Positions 1,645 through 64,000 of a DNA stretch of 64,000 nt are shown piece after piece; within the stretch, counting starts at the first letter, position 1; each line of letters begins with the position of its first letter. The stretch lies in the NCBI GenBank assembly GCA_951406725.2, contig OX597828.1:57040001-57104000 (forward strand). Reading direction: 5' to 3'. The DNA is from Octopus vulgaris (lineage: Eukaryota). The notes below the pieces were generated by a model that saw only the letters and a list, made by a program, of their open reading frames with translations, was not told the origin of the DNA and searched no databases. Position numbers and translations under genes: made by a program.

Positions 1645-1660
1645 TTATTTTCTTTTCAGG
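1645..1660 (+). promoter_or_regulatory. Putative 3' splice acceptor of a 5'-UTR intron for the 1683-2798 gene
   Basis: TTATTTTCTTTTCAG|G, a polypyrimidine tract plus CAG with AG at 1658-1659, 23 nt upstream of the ATG. Confidence 0.65.
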
Positions 1661-1682: not shown

Positions 1683-2798
1683 ATGAATATCAGAAGCGGC
1701 ATACTCATTTTCTTCTATATACCGCATATATTTGCAAGTTCTTATTTAACTGACCGTGATTTAAGAGATACACTTCTTAAAGGTTACAACAAAGATGTTC
1801 GTCCTGTACGAAATATTACCCAAAATCTAAATATTGATTTATATTTTAAATCAGTCGTTATATACAATCTGGATTTGTTTGAAGGAATGTTACATAGTAA
1901 AATAATTATAGAGTCTAGATGGAAAGACGAATATCTTTGCTGGGATCCCATCAAATATGACAATCTAACTCAAATAGAATTCCAATCTGACTCCATTTGG
2001 GCACCGAATATATTTGTGAGCAATGCAGAAAAAGTTACTAAAGGTTCAGGTTTTAGTGAATATATTACAGTGAGTTATGACGGAAGGACATCCTATTTCA
2101 TTCGAAGCATTTATCGTACATACTGCTCGATTGACTTTTACAAATATCCTTTTTCATTCAATAAGTGTAAAATATACTTTTGGTTATCCAATGAAATGGT
2201 CTCATACCTGACGTTACAAACTATAGATTTCACTAACACAACGAATGTATGGACAACCATTTGGAATATTCAACTAGATGGCCATAAATATGAGGACGAC
2301 AATTCGACAGACGGTTTCCAATTAATAATCATGTTAGAACAGTCTTCATCTGCGAATAATGTTGCGATAATTATAGGAATTTTGTTGCTATCATTACTGA
2401 CGATATGCATATTTCTTTTGCCTGCAGAGAGTGGGGAGAAGGTTACATTTTCAACTACACTCTTTCTCACCAATATTCTCTATCTTGTTGAAAGTGGGAG
2501 AGCGATAAGTACGAATGGGTCAGAAATACCTTTGTATCTACTTTACATACTTTATCTGACAACAGCCAGTAGTCTTTCCTGTGTTGGATCTATCTTTATC
2601 TGTCGGCTCTATCAACACTCAGTACTGGAAAAGAACCTGAACCAACAGTCTGAGAGTCGATACAAGGAAAATGTTCAGCCAAGGAAATGTGGAAAACTAT
2701 CTTTAAATTACACACAACTTAACCGACTCTCACTTTTTATCACTCTTTGTTTGTTCGGGTCTACTCTTCTTCTTGTGATTATTCACTTTTTCGACTAA
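1683..2798 (+). CDS. Atypical nAChR-like Cys-loop receptor subunit (cephalopod chemotactile-receptor-like), divergent type, 371 aa, uninterrupted CDS
   Basis: Signal peptide; YNKDVRPV; W-x-D-x-x-L-x-W; loop A WAPNIFVSN; Cys-loop C148-x13-C162 (CSIDFYKYPFSFNKC); four hydrophobic TM segments; PAESGEK before M2. No loop C Cys-Cys and no canonical ACh aromatic box. Confidence 0.93.
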   Translation: MNIRSGILIFFYIPHIFASSYLTDRDLRDTLLKGYNKDVRPVRNITQNLNIDLYFKSVVIYNLDLFEGMLHSKIIIESRWKDEYLCWDPIKYDNLTQIEFQSDSIWAPNIFVSNAEKVTKGSGFSEYITVSYDGRTSYFIRSIYRTYCSIDFYKYPFSFNKCKIYFWLSNEMVSYLTLQTIDFTNTTNVWTTIWNIQLDGHKYEDDNSTDGFQLIIMLEQSSSANNVAIIIGILLLSLLTICIFLLPAESGEKVTFSTTLFLTNILYLVESGRAISTNGSEIPLYLLYILYLTTASSLSCVGSIFICRLYQHSVLEKNLNQQSESRYKENVQPRKCGKLSLNYTQLNRLSLFITLCLFGSTLLLVIIHFFD

Positions 2799-15924: not shown

Positions 15925-17049
15925 CTATACAACTGCGAAAACTATGTAGCTTAACAAGAATATAAGAGTTACAAACAAAAATACCCAGTCAAGCTTCCTA
16001 TATGTATATGAACGCTTCTTCGATCGACTTGTATTTTCTATGCTTACATTGTCTTGAACAGACTCATCCATAATTCCAACTTTATTTTTCGATCCACTTG
16101 TTTTTTCTGGGATTGAGGTTTCGTGCACAGCGGTCTCGTTGACATAAAATTTACACACAATTATGGAGACAAAGGTAGAAAAGCCGCTGATAAGTGTCAG
16201 AATTAGGAGATATAACAGATATCTTGAGACTCCACGAGATTTAGAACCCAACGACTTGGCCGATTCTGTTAAATAAACGACATTGGCAAGGAAAATAGTA
16301 ATTGCAACTGATACCTTTTCTCCCGTCTCAGCAGGCAATACATACACACCCAAGTTCAATATTGTCAGCAGTGCTGGGAATATAAAATGGGTGAATGTTT
16401 CACTCATCGATTTTCTATTTGCATAAATAATAACCCTAGCCGATACAATTCCATTTTCCATGACGTCTCCTACAACAAACTTATAATCCCAGGAATCTGA
16501 CGACGAGTCATGCCTATTGTGAAAGGAAAAGTTTTGCATAGTTTGTTCTTTATACTTTTGATGGCGCAAACAAGTTTTTATATAGCATTTGTGCTCATCG
16601 AAAGGATATTTATGCATATCAATTGTGCAGTAAGTTTGGAAAATGCCGTCCATATGAAACGTAACGGTTCCATCATATTCTATGGTGGCTCCTCCTTTAT
16701 GAACAGCAAAATTACCTGACATATCGTTACAAATGTAAGCGTGTGGGTACCATATATCCTCTATGTCTACGTTTATATAACTTATGTTATTCAGTTTGTC
16801 ATTCCACATCAAGTTGTTATCTCTCCATGATAAACCAAGCACAATTTTGCTTGCAAGTAAACCTTTGTGGATATCTAATTCAATGATTTTCAAAAGAATA
16901 AGAGATACATTTATTTTCACTATAGCTTCATCATCAGGAAAAGGCAAAAGCGTTTTCGTGTAATTTTCGAATAAGTTTGAGTGTAAAATGTTTTTCTCCG
17001 AAACAGCGTTAACAGTAACCGCTAATAATACCGAAGTTATTAATTTCAT
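15925..17049 (-). CDS. Chemotactile-receptor-like Cys-loop channel subunit, 374 aa, uninterrupted CDS
   Basis: Signal peptide; WYPHAYICN; Cys-loop C141-C155 (CTIDMHKYPFDEHKC); extra Cys107 and Cys160; pre-M1 NRK; M1 Pro; PAETGEKVSVAITIFLAN (M2); short M3-M4 loop; M4. Confidence 0.96.
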   Translation of the reverse strand: MKLITSVLLAVTVNAVSEKNILHSNLFENYTKTLLPFPDDEAIVKINVSLILLKIIELDIHKGLLASKIVLGLSWRDNNLMWNDKLNNISYINVDIEDIWYPHAYICNDMSGNFAVHKGGATIEYDGTVTFHMDGIFQTYCTIDMHKYPFDEHKCYIKTCLRHQKYKEQTMQNFSFHNRHDSSSDSWDYKFVVGDVMENGIVSARVIIYANRKSMSETFTHFIFPALLTILNLGVYVLPAETGEKVSVAITIFLANVVYLTESAKSLGSKSRGVSRYLLYLLILTLISGFSTFVSIIVCKFYVNETAVHETSIPEKTSGSKNKVGIMDESVQDNVSIENTSRSKKRSYTYRKLDWVFLFVTLIFLLSYIVFAVV

Positions 17050-23254: not shown

Positions 23255-24394
23255 TTAAGATAATACAACATAAATCATATAGATTAACAAAAATATAACA
23301 GTGCCGAACAAAAAGACCATGTCAAGCTTTTGATATGCATACAGATGTCTCTTAGAGTGAATTGTAGTTTGTAAGTTTAACTTTTCATCATAAGGCTGGT
23401 CAATTGTTCCGATTTTATTCTTGGACCCTGTTTGTTTAAATCTGAATTCTGGTATGCTATTAGTTCTCACTGCAGACTGGTTGACATACATTTTACACCC
23501 AATTATAGAGATAAGGGTAGAAAAGCCGCTGACAAGTGTCAGAATTAAGAGATATAACAAGTACCTTGATAACACGAGGGACTTCGTGCCCAATACTTTG
23601 ACCGTTTCTGTCAGATAGACAACATTGGCAAGGAAAATTGTGATTGCAACTGAAACCTTCTCTCCCGATTCAGCAGGCAATAAATACACCCCTAAGTTCA
23701 GTATTGTCAGCATTATTGGGAATATGAAGTGTGTTAATGTTTCACTCATAAATTTTCTTTTTGCGAAAATAGTAACACTAGCCGATATGATTTCCTTTTC
23801 AGTAATGTTCCCTACAGCAAACTTATATTCCCACTGATCTGCAGCCGCGTTATGCAAGTTGTTAAAAGAAAAGCTTTGCATGTTTTTTTCTATATTCTCC
23901 TGATGACCCAGGCAGGCGGTAATATTACATTCATGTTCATCTAAAGGATATTTAAGCATATTAATTGTGCAGTGAGTTTGGAAAATTCCATCCATATGTA
24001 AAGACACTGATCCATCATATTTTACAGTGGCCCCTTCTCCTTCATGTAGAGAAAATTTGCCTGACATATCGTTACATATGGAAACAGTGGGGTACCATAT
24101 GTCATCTACATTTACGCTTATGTAAGTTATATTTTTCATTGTTGCATTCCACAGCAAGTAGATATCTTTCCATGATAAACCAAGCACAACTTTGCTGATA
24201 AGTAAACCTTTTTGAATATCTAATTCAATTATTTTAAACATTTCAAGCAATACATCTATTTTCACTATGTCTTCATCATTATGGACAGGCCTCTCGGTTT
24301 TCGTGTAATTTTGAAGCAACATTGATCGCAGAATGCTTTTCTCAGAAATAGCGTTTACATTAACCGCTAGTAATAAGATAGCTATGAATTTCAT
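23255..24394 (-). CDS. Chemotactile-receptor-like Cys-loop channel subunit, 379 aa, uninterrupted CDS; closest paralogue of 15925-17049
   Basis: Signal peptide; NYTKTERPV; WYPTVSICN; Cys-loop CTINMLKYPLDEHEC; PAESGEKVSVAITIFLAN; 4 TM segments. M1-M3 region differs from 15925-17049 at about 17 of 90 residues. Confidence 0.96.
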   Translation of the reverse strand: MKFIAILLLAVNVNAISEKSILRSMLLQNYTKTERPVHNDEDIVKIDVLLEMFKIIELDIQKGLLISKVVLGLSWKDIYLLWNATMKNITYISVNVDDIWYPTVSICNDMSGKFSLHEGEGATVKYDGSVSLHMDGIFQTHCTINMLKYPLDEHECNITACLGHQENIEKNMQSFSFNNLHNAAADQWEYKFAVGNITEKEIISASVTIFAKRKFMSETLTHFIFPIMLTILNLGVYLLPAESGEKVSVAITIFLANVVYLTETVKVLGTKSLVLSRYLLYLLILTLVSGFSTLISIIGCKMYVNQSAVRTNSIPEFRFKQTGSKNKIGTIDQPYDEKLNLQTTIHSKRHLYAYQKLDMVFLFGTVIFLLIYMIYVVLS

Positions 24395-39397: not shown

Positions 39398-40492
39398 TTA
39401 CATCAGTAAGCCAAAAATTATTATGAGTAGCAGAGACATAATAGTTACTGAGAAAAATATGTATTTCTTTCCACCACGAATCATACGTTTAAAAACATCA
39501 GCAAATTTTCCTTGTGTATTTTCTTCATCTGGGCTTTCTCGGATACATGTTTTACGTTGTGAAGTGCTTGGTTCAGGACTGATTTTTGTTATTTTGACTT
39601 TATTGGTAGAAATTATCGAGGCAAAACATGAAAACCCACTGATGGTTGTCAGAAATAAGAGATACACTAGATATATAGAGAAAGTTCGAGAATTATTAGA
39701 CATTAGTTGAGACGCTTCAGAAAGAAGAACAATATTTGAGAGAAATAGTGTAACTGCATATGAAACTTTCTCTCCGGATTCAGCAGGCAATAAATAGACA
39801 GCTAATATCAGTATTGTCAACATTATTACGGGTATAACTTTTGTTACTGTTACTAATGTGATTTTTCTTTTCGCTCGAATTACTGCGGTAGCTGTGAAGT
39901 TACTTTCTGTAGAATTTGGCAAAAGAAACTCCCATTCATGGAATTCATTTTGAGGCCTTAAGTTGTATGTACAGCTACTAATCACGGCTTCTGATCTTGT
40001 CTTCTCTTCCATGCAAATTTCTAAATGACACATGTGCGCATCAAAAGGATATTTCTCCATATTGATCTTGCAGTATGTATCGAAAATTTTCTCTGTGTAT
40101 AAAAACACGATTCCATCATGTCGTACAGTAACTTTTTTATCCTCATCAAATTTTGATTTTCCTGTTACACTGTTACATATCTGAATGATTGGATGCCAAA
40201 TTGCGTTTGCTTTGATAGTTACCCTGCTTATATTACCCTTTAATGTTTTATTCCACGCAAGATTAATATCGTGCCATTTTGCTCCAAGAACAAGATTACT
40301 TGTTAGTACACCTTTTGAAATATCTAATTCAATAATCTCCCTTATGTCCAGGGACACATTTATCTTTAAGTTGCCAAAATTGTCGTTCATATATGTCACA
40401 AGGTCAGCGTAATTTCTGAATTCATCATTAAACAAAGTATTGTTTGACAGAACTGTCTCCGTTAACATAAAAAAGATTATCAATTTCATCAT
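39398..40492 (-). CDS. Chemotactile-receptor-like Cys-loop channel subunit, 364 aa, uninterrupted CDS
   Basis: Signal peptide; WHPIIQICN; Cys-loop CKINMEKYPFDAHMC; KRK pre-M1; PAESGEKVSYAVTLFLSN; 4 TM segments. The start could be the first or second Met. Confidence 0.95.
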   Translation of the reverse strand: MMKLIIFFMLTETVLSNNTLFNDEFRNYADLVTYMNDNFGNLKINVSLDIREIIELDISKGVLTSNLVLGAKWHDINLAWNKTLKGNISRVTIKANAIWHPIIQICNSVTGKSKFDEDKKVTVRHDGIVFLYTEKIFDTYCKINMEKYPFDAHMCHLEICMEEKTRSEAVISSCTYNLRPQNEFHEWEFLLPNSTESNFTATAVIRAKRKITLVTVTKVIPVIMLTILILAVYLLPAESGEKVSYAVTLFLSNIVLLSEASQLMSNNSRTFSIYLVYLLFLTTISGFSCFASIISTNKVKITKISPEPSTSQRKTCIRESPDEENTQGKFADVFKRMIRGGKKYIFFSVTIMSLLLIIIFGLLM

Positions 40493-50422: not shown

Positions 50423-50528
<106 letters not shown>

Positions 50529-50543
50529 ATTTATATATATATA

Positions 50544-51616
50544 ACGTCCGACGACGGAGTGTTCCTCCACACCAGGGCTGATGGTGGATTGTTCAATCTT
50601 GCGCGCCTCAGAGCTAAGACCAAAGTCCGTCAGGTGCTGATCAGAGAGATCCTCTTTGCTGACGATGCCGGCCTAACATCACACAACCAACCGGGTCTCC
50701 AGAGGCTGGTCAGCTCCCTGGCGGATGTCTGCCAAGAGTTCGGCCTTACCATCAGCCTGAAAAAGACAGAGATCATGGGCCAGGACGTCGGAGGGGTCCC
50801 CAGCATCAGTGTCGGCTACCACAGCTTGCAGGTGGTGAACGAGTTCACTTACCTGGGATCGACGGTCTCCAGCAGCCTGTCCCTCGAGCCGGAGCTGAAC
50901 AGAAGGATTGGGAAGGCTGCTGCTGCCATGGCTAAGCTCTCCAGGAGAGTGTGGGAAAACAACATGCTCACAATAACCACCAAGATCGCAGTGTACCGAG
51001 CCTGCGTGCTGAGCACCCTACTCTACGGCAGCAAGAGCTGGACAACATACACCCGGCAGGAATGCCGCCTCAGCGGCTTCCACATGCGGTGTCTTCGACG
51101 GATCCTTGGCATCTCCTGGAAGGACCGAGTGCCAAACGGAGTCATCCTGGAACAGACTAATATGCCCTCCTCGTGCAGAGACGACTGCGCTGGCTCGGAC
51201 ACGTCTGCCGCATGCAGGACGGTCGCATGCCTAAAGACATCCTGTACAGCGAACTCACCACGGGATCCCGACCCAAGGGACGTCCACAGCTACGATACAG
51301 GGACGTGTGCAAGCGCGACCTGAGGACTGCCAACATCTGTGTGGACACGTGGGAGGAAACAGCTGCTGACCGCTCTGCCTGGCGTCGGACGGTGAGGAAA
51401 GGCGTTTCCATGGCTGTGGTTGGACAGGCGGGACAGGAGGAGGACAACTGCAGCAACACCCCACACGTACCCATCGATGTTCGTGTGCAGCAACTGTACC
51501 AAGGACTGCCACTCTAGAATTGGACTGTTCAGTCACAGCAGACGCTGCACATCATCAAAGTAGGCCCCCACCCTTGGCGCAACCCATTGCCTATCAAGAC
51601 AGACGGGGAAAGATGA
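50544..51616 (+). mobile_element. RTE/BovB-type LINE, 5'-truncated, young and GC-rich, inserted in (TA)n
   Basis: [25 protein letters not shown]...ILFADD, FGLTISLKKT, FTYLGS, RIGKA, STLLYG..SWT, then after a frameshift near 51170 RLRWLGHVCRMQDGRMPKDILYSEL..G.RP.GRP.LRYRD; degenerate C2H2 tail. Confidence 0.95.
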
Positions 51617-62991: not shown

Positions 62992-64000
62992 TTAAATAGA
63001 GTCTGATGAAACAATAATGATATAGAGTAGAAGGAATAAAACAGTTGCTGACAAAATGGATTTGTCTAGCATCTGATGTTTTATTCGACATTTCTTAATG
63101 CGCCTTTTAGATTTTGTCTTAATAATTGGTTCATCTGCGTTTCCTATGATCCCGATTTTATTTTTCGATCCGTTTGTTTCTTGATCCTTTTCTGAAATTG
63201 TGTTGGCGCCAGACTCGTGGGCGAACAGTTTACACACAATTACAGAGCTGATAGAAGAAAAACCGCTTACAAGTGTCAGATTTAAGAGGTATATCAAATA
63301 TATAGAAGGTTCACGGGAATTATTACCCAGTTTTTTCTCAGTTTCAGAAAGATAAACTATATTTGCTAGAAAAACAGTAATTGCAACAGAAACTTTCTCT
63401 CCAGAAGAAGCCGGCAACACATACACAGATAAGATCAATAATGTTAACATAATTGGCGGTATAATTTTGGTAACTGTTGCACTAGAATATTTTCTTTTGC
63501 AGTACACAATAACTCCAGCTGTTATGATCTCCTGTTTTTCAACCTCGCTGTATTCATATCTATAATCCCATTGATTCGATATTGGCTTATAAGTTACTTC
63601 GTACAGAAAATAATCTAACATTATCTCCGTATTCATCTGGTGTTCAAAACAAACAGATATGTCACATTCGTGCTCATCAAAAGGATATTTATTAACGTTA
63701 ACCTTGCAGTAAGTATTGAAAATTCTGTCTATATGTAAGTGGACACTTCCGTCACTCTTTATCGTGACTCGCGAATTTTCATCAAATGTGAATTTACCTG
63801 TTACGCTGTTACATATTTGTACGTTAGGATACCACACTTTCTGTAAATCAACTTTTACATAGCTTATATTATTTTGTTCACGATTCCACATAAGATTAAC
63901 ATCATACCACAATAATCCAAGAATGAGATTACTTGTCATTATACCTTTCGTAATATCAAATTCAATAATGTTCTTTATTTTAAGCGATACATTTACGTAT
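62992..64000 (-). CDS. Chemotactile-receptor-like Cys-loop channel subunit, 5' end truncated by the window edge
   Basis: The frame stays open upstream of the listed Met (63939) to the window end and reads YVNVSLKIKNIIEFDITKGI-MTSNL, homologous to beta1-beta2 of the paralogues. WYPNVQICN; Cys-loop CKVNVNKYPFDEHEC; PASSGEKVSVAITVFLAN; 4 TM segments; stop at 62992. Confidence 0.95.
   Translation of the reverse strand, partial: YVNVSLKIKNIIEFDITKGIMTSNLILGLLWYDVNLMWNREQNNISYVKVDLQKVWYPNVQICNSVTGKFTFDENSRVTIKSDGSVHLHIDRIFNTYCKVNVNKYPFDEHECDISVCFEHQMNTEIMLDYFLYEVTYKPISNQWDYRYEYSEVEKQEIITAGVIVYCKRKYSSATVTKIIPPIMLTLLILSVYVLPASSGEKVSVAITVFLANIVYLSETEKKLGNNSREPSIYLIYLLNLTLVSGFSSISSVIVCKLFAHESGANTISEKDQETNGSKNKIGIIGNADEPIIKTKSKRRIKKCRIKHQMLDKSILSATVLFLLLYIIIVSSDSI

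Follow-up and report, generated by a model that had tools for sequence, protein, structure and literature searches.

A chemotactile-receptor-type subunit of Octopus vulgaris without the conserved coupling residues of Cys-loop channels

In Cys-loop channels, the Asp-Arg salt bridge and two prolines constitute the best-conserved part of the connection between ligand binding and channel opening. The window analyzed here, a stretch of 64,000 nucleotides from Octopus vulgaris, contains a gene for such a subunit (1683-2798) in which these residues are missing, and this raises the question of which role the subunit can have. A subunit that occurs in nature, is under selection and does without four of the seven top residues offers a ready test of whether every subunit requires the linkage or whether something else can take its place.

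The gene was annotated on the forward strand (1683..2798) as a single-exon ORF encoding a chemotactile-receptor-type pentameric ligand-gated channel (pLGIC) subunit of 371 aa, with a signal peptide, an extracellular domain and the segments M1-M4. The preliminary description of the locus had called the ORF otherwise intact, and all 371 codons were found to be open. The Pfam search resulted in matches to PF02931 (E 3.5e-30) and PF02932 (E 2e-4, under its curated cut-off). An AlphaFold model calculated with a 21-row alignment has a mean pLDDT of 78 and predicted helices at residues 224-245 (M1), 252-274, 284-325 and 343-370. Pfam, AlphaFold and Foldseek agree on an extracellular beta-sandwich followed by four transmembrane helices, which is the pLGIC fold. 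The Cys-x13-Cys loop is present with C148, Y155, P156 and C162, and the beta9 Trp is W194.

Among solved structures, the closest relatives by sequence are octopus CRT1 (E 2.1e-46) and squid CRB1 (E 5.2e-29), both ranking above the nicotinic subunits, and a Foldseek search with the AlphaFold model placed CRT1 at rank 1 (TM 0.85 on the target, 30% identity). In a tree of 40 rows, the protein is located inside a 22-row clade (support 100/98) together with named Octopus cluster genes, and a second tree revealed a chemotactile receptor (CR) clade of 20 rows (support 100/100). The trees were calculated without CRT1 and CRB1 as rows, and the link of the protein to both consists of their being its best solved matches. 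The stem branch of 1683-2798 is long in these trees (1.36-1.39 changes per column). As is typical for CRs, the acetylcholine aromatic box and the vicinal cysteines of loop C are missing (loop C reads GHKYEDDNSTDG; S169 occupies what we take to be the loop B Trp position of nicotinic receptors). Likewise, the coding sequences are intronless and arranged in tandem, with five single-exon paralogues in 64 kb. A cluster of 26 CR genes is given for O. bimaculoides in PMC9068888, and CR coding genes are described as intronless in PMC13174522. On the basis of the CRT1 and CRB1 matches, the near-matches in O. sinensis and O. bimaculoides, and the placement in the CR clade, 1683-2798 is by its sequence a member of the cephalopod CR cluster.

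The positions of the CRT1 pocket correspond to Y54, K56, I75, F139, R141, S169, N170, S208 and T209, of which three of nine are hydrophobic, with none of four on the principal face. The 18 other CR rows span 1-6/9, so this count does not set 1683-2798 apart, and a polar pocket as a sign of a non-binding subunit was discarded as not discriminating.

Four further CR paralogues were found in the window, all on the reverse strand: 15925..17049 (374 aa; Asp and Arg kept), which is a candidate partner, 23255..24394 (379 aa; Asp and Arg kept), 39398..40492 (364 aa; Asp, Arg and M1 Pro kept) and 62992..64000 (Asp, Arg and M1 Pro kept), whose 5′ end lies beyond the window edge. A tblastn search of the 64-kb window with the five genes revealed no further CR copies or fragments. 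The four neighbours have YPFD/YPLD, and the NRK/KRK and M1 Pro attributed to them before were confirmed, with the Pro one column later in 15925-17049 and 23255-24394 (FIFPA and FIFPI, respectively). The first gene had also been described as the only one on the forward strand. This is correct among the CR genes, but an ORF for a reverse transcriptase fragment is located on the same strand (50499-51320; RVT_1, E 8e-06, under the cut-off), likely a retrotransposon remnant among the CR genes.

For the comparison of the coupling residues, the five window proteins were aligned with 183 domains spanning the Cys loop to M1 (188 rows in total). These domains were drawn from 155 of 156 collected proteins, and the remaining 16 of the 199 domain hits were too short to be included. 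The Cys loop C148-C162 (2124..2168; C148 at 2124-2126, C162 at 2166-2168) has the motif YPFS, in which Ser158 (TCA, 2154-2156) replaces the conserved Asp while Y155 and P156 are retained. The pre-M1 Arg position is Q220 (CAG, 2340..2342), which is aligned with R203 of CRT1 and ends beta10 (strand 210-220) in the AlphaFold model. A misalignment by one residue was excluded, as the column of the preceding E219 (2337-2339) is variable, whereas the Q220 column is the Arg column in the CRT1 alignment, the 188 rows and the model. The M1 Pro position is G232 (GGA, 2376..2378), with Gly in all three orthologous sequences. The M2-M3 Pro position is S276 (2508..2510), where CRT1 has Pro and the four neighbours, too, are without it; this loss is not mentioned in the preliminary description. 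At the beta1-beta2 acidic position, L65 is found (1875..1877). In nicotinic receptors, the pre-M1 Arg has this acid as its third partner. Despite these losses, Y155, P156, W194 and P283 are kept, and the M1-M2 loop and M2 (residues 246-271; 2418..2495) contain the cation-type motif GEK together with T2′, T6′, L9′ and L13′.

The codon reading and the 188-row alignment thus bear out the losses of Asp, Arg and M1 Pro that had been read from the ORF. That these residues are near-invariant also holds, as Asp or Glu is found in 181, Arg in 179 and Pro in 178 of the 188 domains. In Table 1 of PMC4795631 (561 sequences), conservation is given as 93% for the Asp, 94% for the pre-M1 Arg, 77% for the M1 Pro (Gly in 5%) and 88% for the M2-M3 Pro, and the loop proline alone is named absolutely conserved. 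Of the seven residues in this table, four are missing from the 371-aa protein, and S158, Q220, G232 and S276 stand at their positions. The extra Cys pair of the paralogues is absent as described before (S113 and W167 instead), but it is not distinctive and was dropped as a special trait, because 7 of the 22 CR rows are without the pair.

An error in the letters was also considered. In the runs X2, X5, X7 and X8, which come from four studies, contigs span positions 2124-2400, agree with the window at all three codons and contain no indel. A sequencing or assembly error, raised earlier as a possible objection, is therefore rejected by all four independent DNA-type runs. Furthermore, no indel in 1683-2798 was seen in any of the eight runs compared. 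The stretch at 1571-1615 upstream of the gene recurs in numerous other contigs of each of these four runs (loose ends) and represents a dispersed repeat, likely in a 5′ UTR intron.

Orthologues were found as three octopod-type sequences. The O. bimaculoides protein P0157 (371 aa, 89% identical) and P0001 (371 aa, 80% identical) are ungapped and free of stops, and both keep S158 and G232. An Octopus sinensis model (P0008) is identical in 128/131 positions to the first 129 residues of the 371-aa protein. Word-based searches of limited reach with the protein, P0140 (see below) and the 21-row alignment as queries revealed no orthologues beyond P0001, P0002/P0157 and P0008. The conservation check proposed in the preliminary description gave a divided result: S158 is conserved in P0001, P0002 and P0157, but Q220 is not, since P0157/P0002 have Gln and P0001 has Arg.

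For codons 1-183, a dN/dS of 0.42 was calculated against run X18 from about 23 non-synonymous and 13 synonymous changes among the differences listed (binomial p = 0.017 against neutrality). Residues 246-271 (M1-M2 loop and M2) are invariant in the three orthologues, with 0/26 variable sites vs 86/371 overall (P = 0.0008), and M1-M3 varies at 10/87 sites (P = 0.0016). Over the gene, low-depth contigs (depth 2-7) were also found in X9, X10 and X20, which are presumed RNA runs, and at most one difference of X20 is not common to X18. Overall, these numbers indicate that 1683-2798 is kept under moderate constraint, and the earlier statement that the losses are not random decay is upheld by the intact orthologues, the dN/dS and the invariant M2.

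Relaxed selection or an incipient pseudogene would agree with the long stem branch, with the truncated database models of two orthologues (P0002 of O. bimaculoides, 286 aa; P0008 of O. sinensis, 177 aa) and with the differences among close relatives, of which 6/8 in the coding sequence are non-synonymous, a near-neutral ratio based on very small numbers. The frame, however, is open at 371 codons in three lineages up to 20% apart, and the missing indels, the dN/dS and the low variation of M1-M3 also speak against decay. This explanation is regarded as very unlikely and as already largely refuted.

The two truncated models are possibly gene-prediction errors or truncated, perhaps soluble, forms. 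P0008 leaves the frame and ends at a splice-donor-like GTGAGT (2070-2075) directly after codon 129, and no splice joint at this site was seen in the contigs of the runs compared. P0002 leaves the frame within M1. A putative splice acceptor, consisting of a pyrimidine tract and CAG, is located at 1650..1659 (+), 23 bases 5′ of the ATG, and likely belongs to a 5′ UTR intron; P0008 was translated across it as GILISYETM. On the other side of the gene, TA and TG microsatellites (2806-2900) begin a few bases past the stop codon.

The order of the losses can be addressed with the same orthologues. The paired loss of Asp and Arg had been interpreted as compensatory, and both residues are in fact mostly lost jointly (both in six, one in three of the 188 rows), the six joint losses representing at most three lineages, namely 1683-2798, P0140 and a 5-HT3A-like protein of a catfish with three such domains. 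The interpretation is supported only in part: a simultaneous compensatory loss is unsupported, because P0001 has Ser158 together with Arg, with the caveat that this Arg could stem from an edited transcript. P0001 is the first to branch among the three orthologues in the trees. The changes from Asp to Ser (TCA) and from Pro to Gly (GGA) need several base changes and are common to the three orthologues, whereas Arg to Gln needs one. As the Arg is kept beside Ser158 in P0001, the loss in these three sequences was probably stepwise and not paired, with Asp and M1 Pro lost first and Arg released later.

The caveat leads to A-to-I editing at Q220, whose codon CAG would be read as CGG; the pre-M1 Arg would thereby be restored in some transcripts and coupling would be switched. 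Coleoids show extensive RNA recoding, a single A-to-G change turns the codon into one for Arg, and P0001, whose assembly type is unstated, has Arg. An X10 contig (presumed RNA, depth 2.2) over 2100-2362 nevertheless has 0 other letters, and editing is unable to restore Asp158 (TCA) or Pro232 (GGA), which makes this explanation highly improbable.

A non-gating accessory role and an altered coupling, both proposed in the preliminary description, are each plausible from the residues described. As the best explanation, held tentatively and at a little under an even chance, we propose that 1683-2798 encodes a non-principal structural subunit of heteromeric CRs. Such a subunit would fold and get to the membrane, and would co-assemble with CR subunits that keep Asp and Arg, needing them as partners. 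It would line the cation pore and tune the responses without driving the gate itself; ligand binding would be carried to the gate by the partners, and the subunit would move passively. The loss of Asp and M1 Pro would date to an early part of the long stem, and the Arg, without its acidic partner, would later have drifted to Gln by one transition.

The structural role fits best because a CRT1-like invariant M2 is combined with the missing coupling linkage: the pore face (T2′, T6′, L9′, L13′, V16′) and the GEK motif are equal to those of CRT1. According to the alignments, CRT1 and CRB1, the two CRs solved as homomers, have each retained the Asp, the Arg and the prolines of M1 and M2-M3. According to PMC4778918, Asp-to-Ala is non-activating in ELIC and GLIC, and Arg-to-Ala is non-activating in ELIC and not expressed in GLIC. 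For the heteromeric Torpedo receptor, PMC10899235 describes that neutralizing the Arg in beta, gamma or delta has little effect, while in alpha it abolishes expression. CR subunits are reported in multimeric complexes (10.1101/2025.03.03.641191; PMC11526382), and four CR genes with Asp and Arg are located within 62 kb of 1683-2798.

The same facts, lost coupling residues with a conserved pore, also fit an inhibitory or leak-type subunit, which would damp the gating of its partners (dominant negative) or open spontaneously, uncoupled from the sensor. Loss of coupling residues stabilizes closed states in ELIC and GLIC (PMC4778918), whereas the canonical L9′/L13′ hydrophobic gate does not suggest a leak. 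We consider this explanation decidedly unlikely.

Several points also stand against the structural role. Every functional subunit should have an invariant M2, which does not distinguish this role from the other explanations. Natural non-alpha nicotinic subunits tolerate the mutation but keep the Arg, so that Arg loss is no known mark of accessory subunits, and two other heteromers are almost unaffected by such mutations (PMC10899235), so the residue sorts subunit roles poorly. In addition, the dN/dS is moderate, and most coding differences among the close relatives are non-synonymous. In the searches made, the orthologues are three octopod-type sequences only and do not extend across cephalopods, as those of a universal co-receptor would.

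A further point, missed in the preliminary description, is that much of the coupling network is already eroded across the CR clade, which renders 1683-2798 less singular. The comparison covers 22 CR rows, non-independent and with orthologues among them, and up to 166 other rows, of which only those in the 40-row tree are shown to lie outside the CR clade. In this comparison, the beta1-beta2 acid is found in 0/22 CR rows vs 107/157 others, the beta8-beta9 acid in 3/22 vs 91/166, the M2-M3 Pro in 7/21 vs 155/160 and the M1 Pro in 14/22 vs 164/166. The M2-M3 Pro is missing from all five window genes; the neighbours 15925-17049, 23255-24394, 39398-40492 and 62992-64000 have Gly or Ser at this position and no beta1-beta2 acid. 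By these residues, 1683-2798 is the extreme of a CR-wide erosion of the coupling interface, and this erosion across the family may outweigh the single-gene case. The net charge of the five coupling segments gave no signal (-3 to -4 here, -4 to +4 across 21 CR rows).

Considering the CR-wide residue loss and the gating of CRT1 without a beta1-beta2 acid, CRs may couple differently, and 1683-2798 may gate alone. In this case it would act as a receptor in its own right, either as a homomer or as the principal subunit, and its coupling would be rewired: packing between the Cys loop and M2-M3 would replace the salt bridge, and the ligand would belong to a class so far untried. Besides the erosion in the family, the retained Y155, P156, W194 and P283 are in line with this, as are the extracellular residues 132-158, a segment picked after viewing the alignment, which are invariant in the three orthologues. 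As both charges are gone, the window allele has no unpaired buried charge, and double charge changes in the muscle receptor result in an EC50 near wild-type (PMC10899235). On the other hand, the Arg without Asp in P0001 means that a strict charge balance was not kept, the solved homomers CRT1 and CRB1 have all four residues, and single losses silence ELIC and GLIC (PMC4778918). A rewired receptor is rather unlikely, but it is the main rival of the structural role.

Joint losses were also found outside this gene. The CR-clade protein P0140, which is derived from an ENA contig, carries Ser in place of the Asp, Asn in place of the Arg and Phe in place of the M1 Pro, and no close relative of it was found by search. 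Free trees keep P0140 and 1683-2798 apart, while a single origin was not rejected (AU p = 0.167). If both belonged to one ancient uncoupled lineage, they could represent a shared CR co-receptor that provides the pore and the assembly surfaces without a sensor-to-pore linkage; we regard this as quite unlikely. If true, the many CRs that are not open to testing on their own would depend on such a co-receptor for their function. Other members of the CR clade, P0019 and P0020, have His or Lys instead of the pre-M1 Arg and keep the Asp, and in P0020 the GEK motif is changed to KQK. In the Bagarius yarrelli protein P0060 (TSK87574.1), three tandem 5-HT3A-like domains all have Val instead of the Asp and are without the pre-M1 Arg. 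This joint loss arose independently, within a vertebrate expansion.

The CR family and this gene are already known, and the gene is contained in databases, albeit as truncated models. No paper on these residue losses was found in the literature searches, whose coverage did not extend to the primary CR papers. The accessible parts of PMC4795631, PMC4778918, PMC10899235, PMC11526382, PMC13174522, PMC10338036, PMC11536092, PMC9068888, 10.1101/2025.03.03.641191, 10.1101/2025.10.28.685082 and 10.1101/2025.04.02.646353 do not mention them. The gene may already be listed under a CR number, with function data, in the primary CR papers. Published screens are limited to the few CRs that are functional in expression systems, two (10.1101/2025.03.03.641191) or five. 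A structural partner subunit would help to explain combinatorial coding and could render other CRs testable.

Compared with known systems, CRT1 (PDB 8EIS, 9E6B) resembles 1683-2798 in the GEK motif, the pore-lining residues and the missing beta1-beta2 acid, but has the Cys-loop Asp, Arg203, both prolines and the extra Cys pair, and it works as a homomer (10.1101/2025.03.03.641191), unlike the role proposed here. Squid CRB1 (PDB 8EIZ), the second-best family match, likewise shows no extra Cys pair over the part that was aligned, whereas it keeps Asp, Arg and both prolines. P0140 shares the missing Asp, Arg and M1 Pro, but retains the M2-M3 Pro and is 24% identical. The catfish domains of P0060 have Val at the Asp column and Ser, Ile or Leu at the Arg column; unlike 1683-2798 they keep the M1 Pro and belong to a fish protein. 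No characterization of P0140 or P0060 was found in the literature searched. Chemosensory channels with a dedicated partner subunit are also known from insect Orco (PMC11526382) and the ionotropic-receptor co-receptors; these, however, belong to unrelated protein families, and Orco is ubiquitous and highly conserved, whereas the lineage of 1683-2798 was found in three octopod-type sequences only. As a functional analogue we propose the non-alpha subunits (beta, gamma, delta) of the nicotinic receptor of muscle, where gating does not depend on the salt bridge of the pre-M1 Arg (PMC10899235), although these subunits keep the residues in nature, belong to another clade and serve a receptor for acetylcholine and not a chemosensor.
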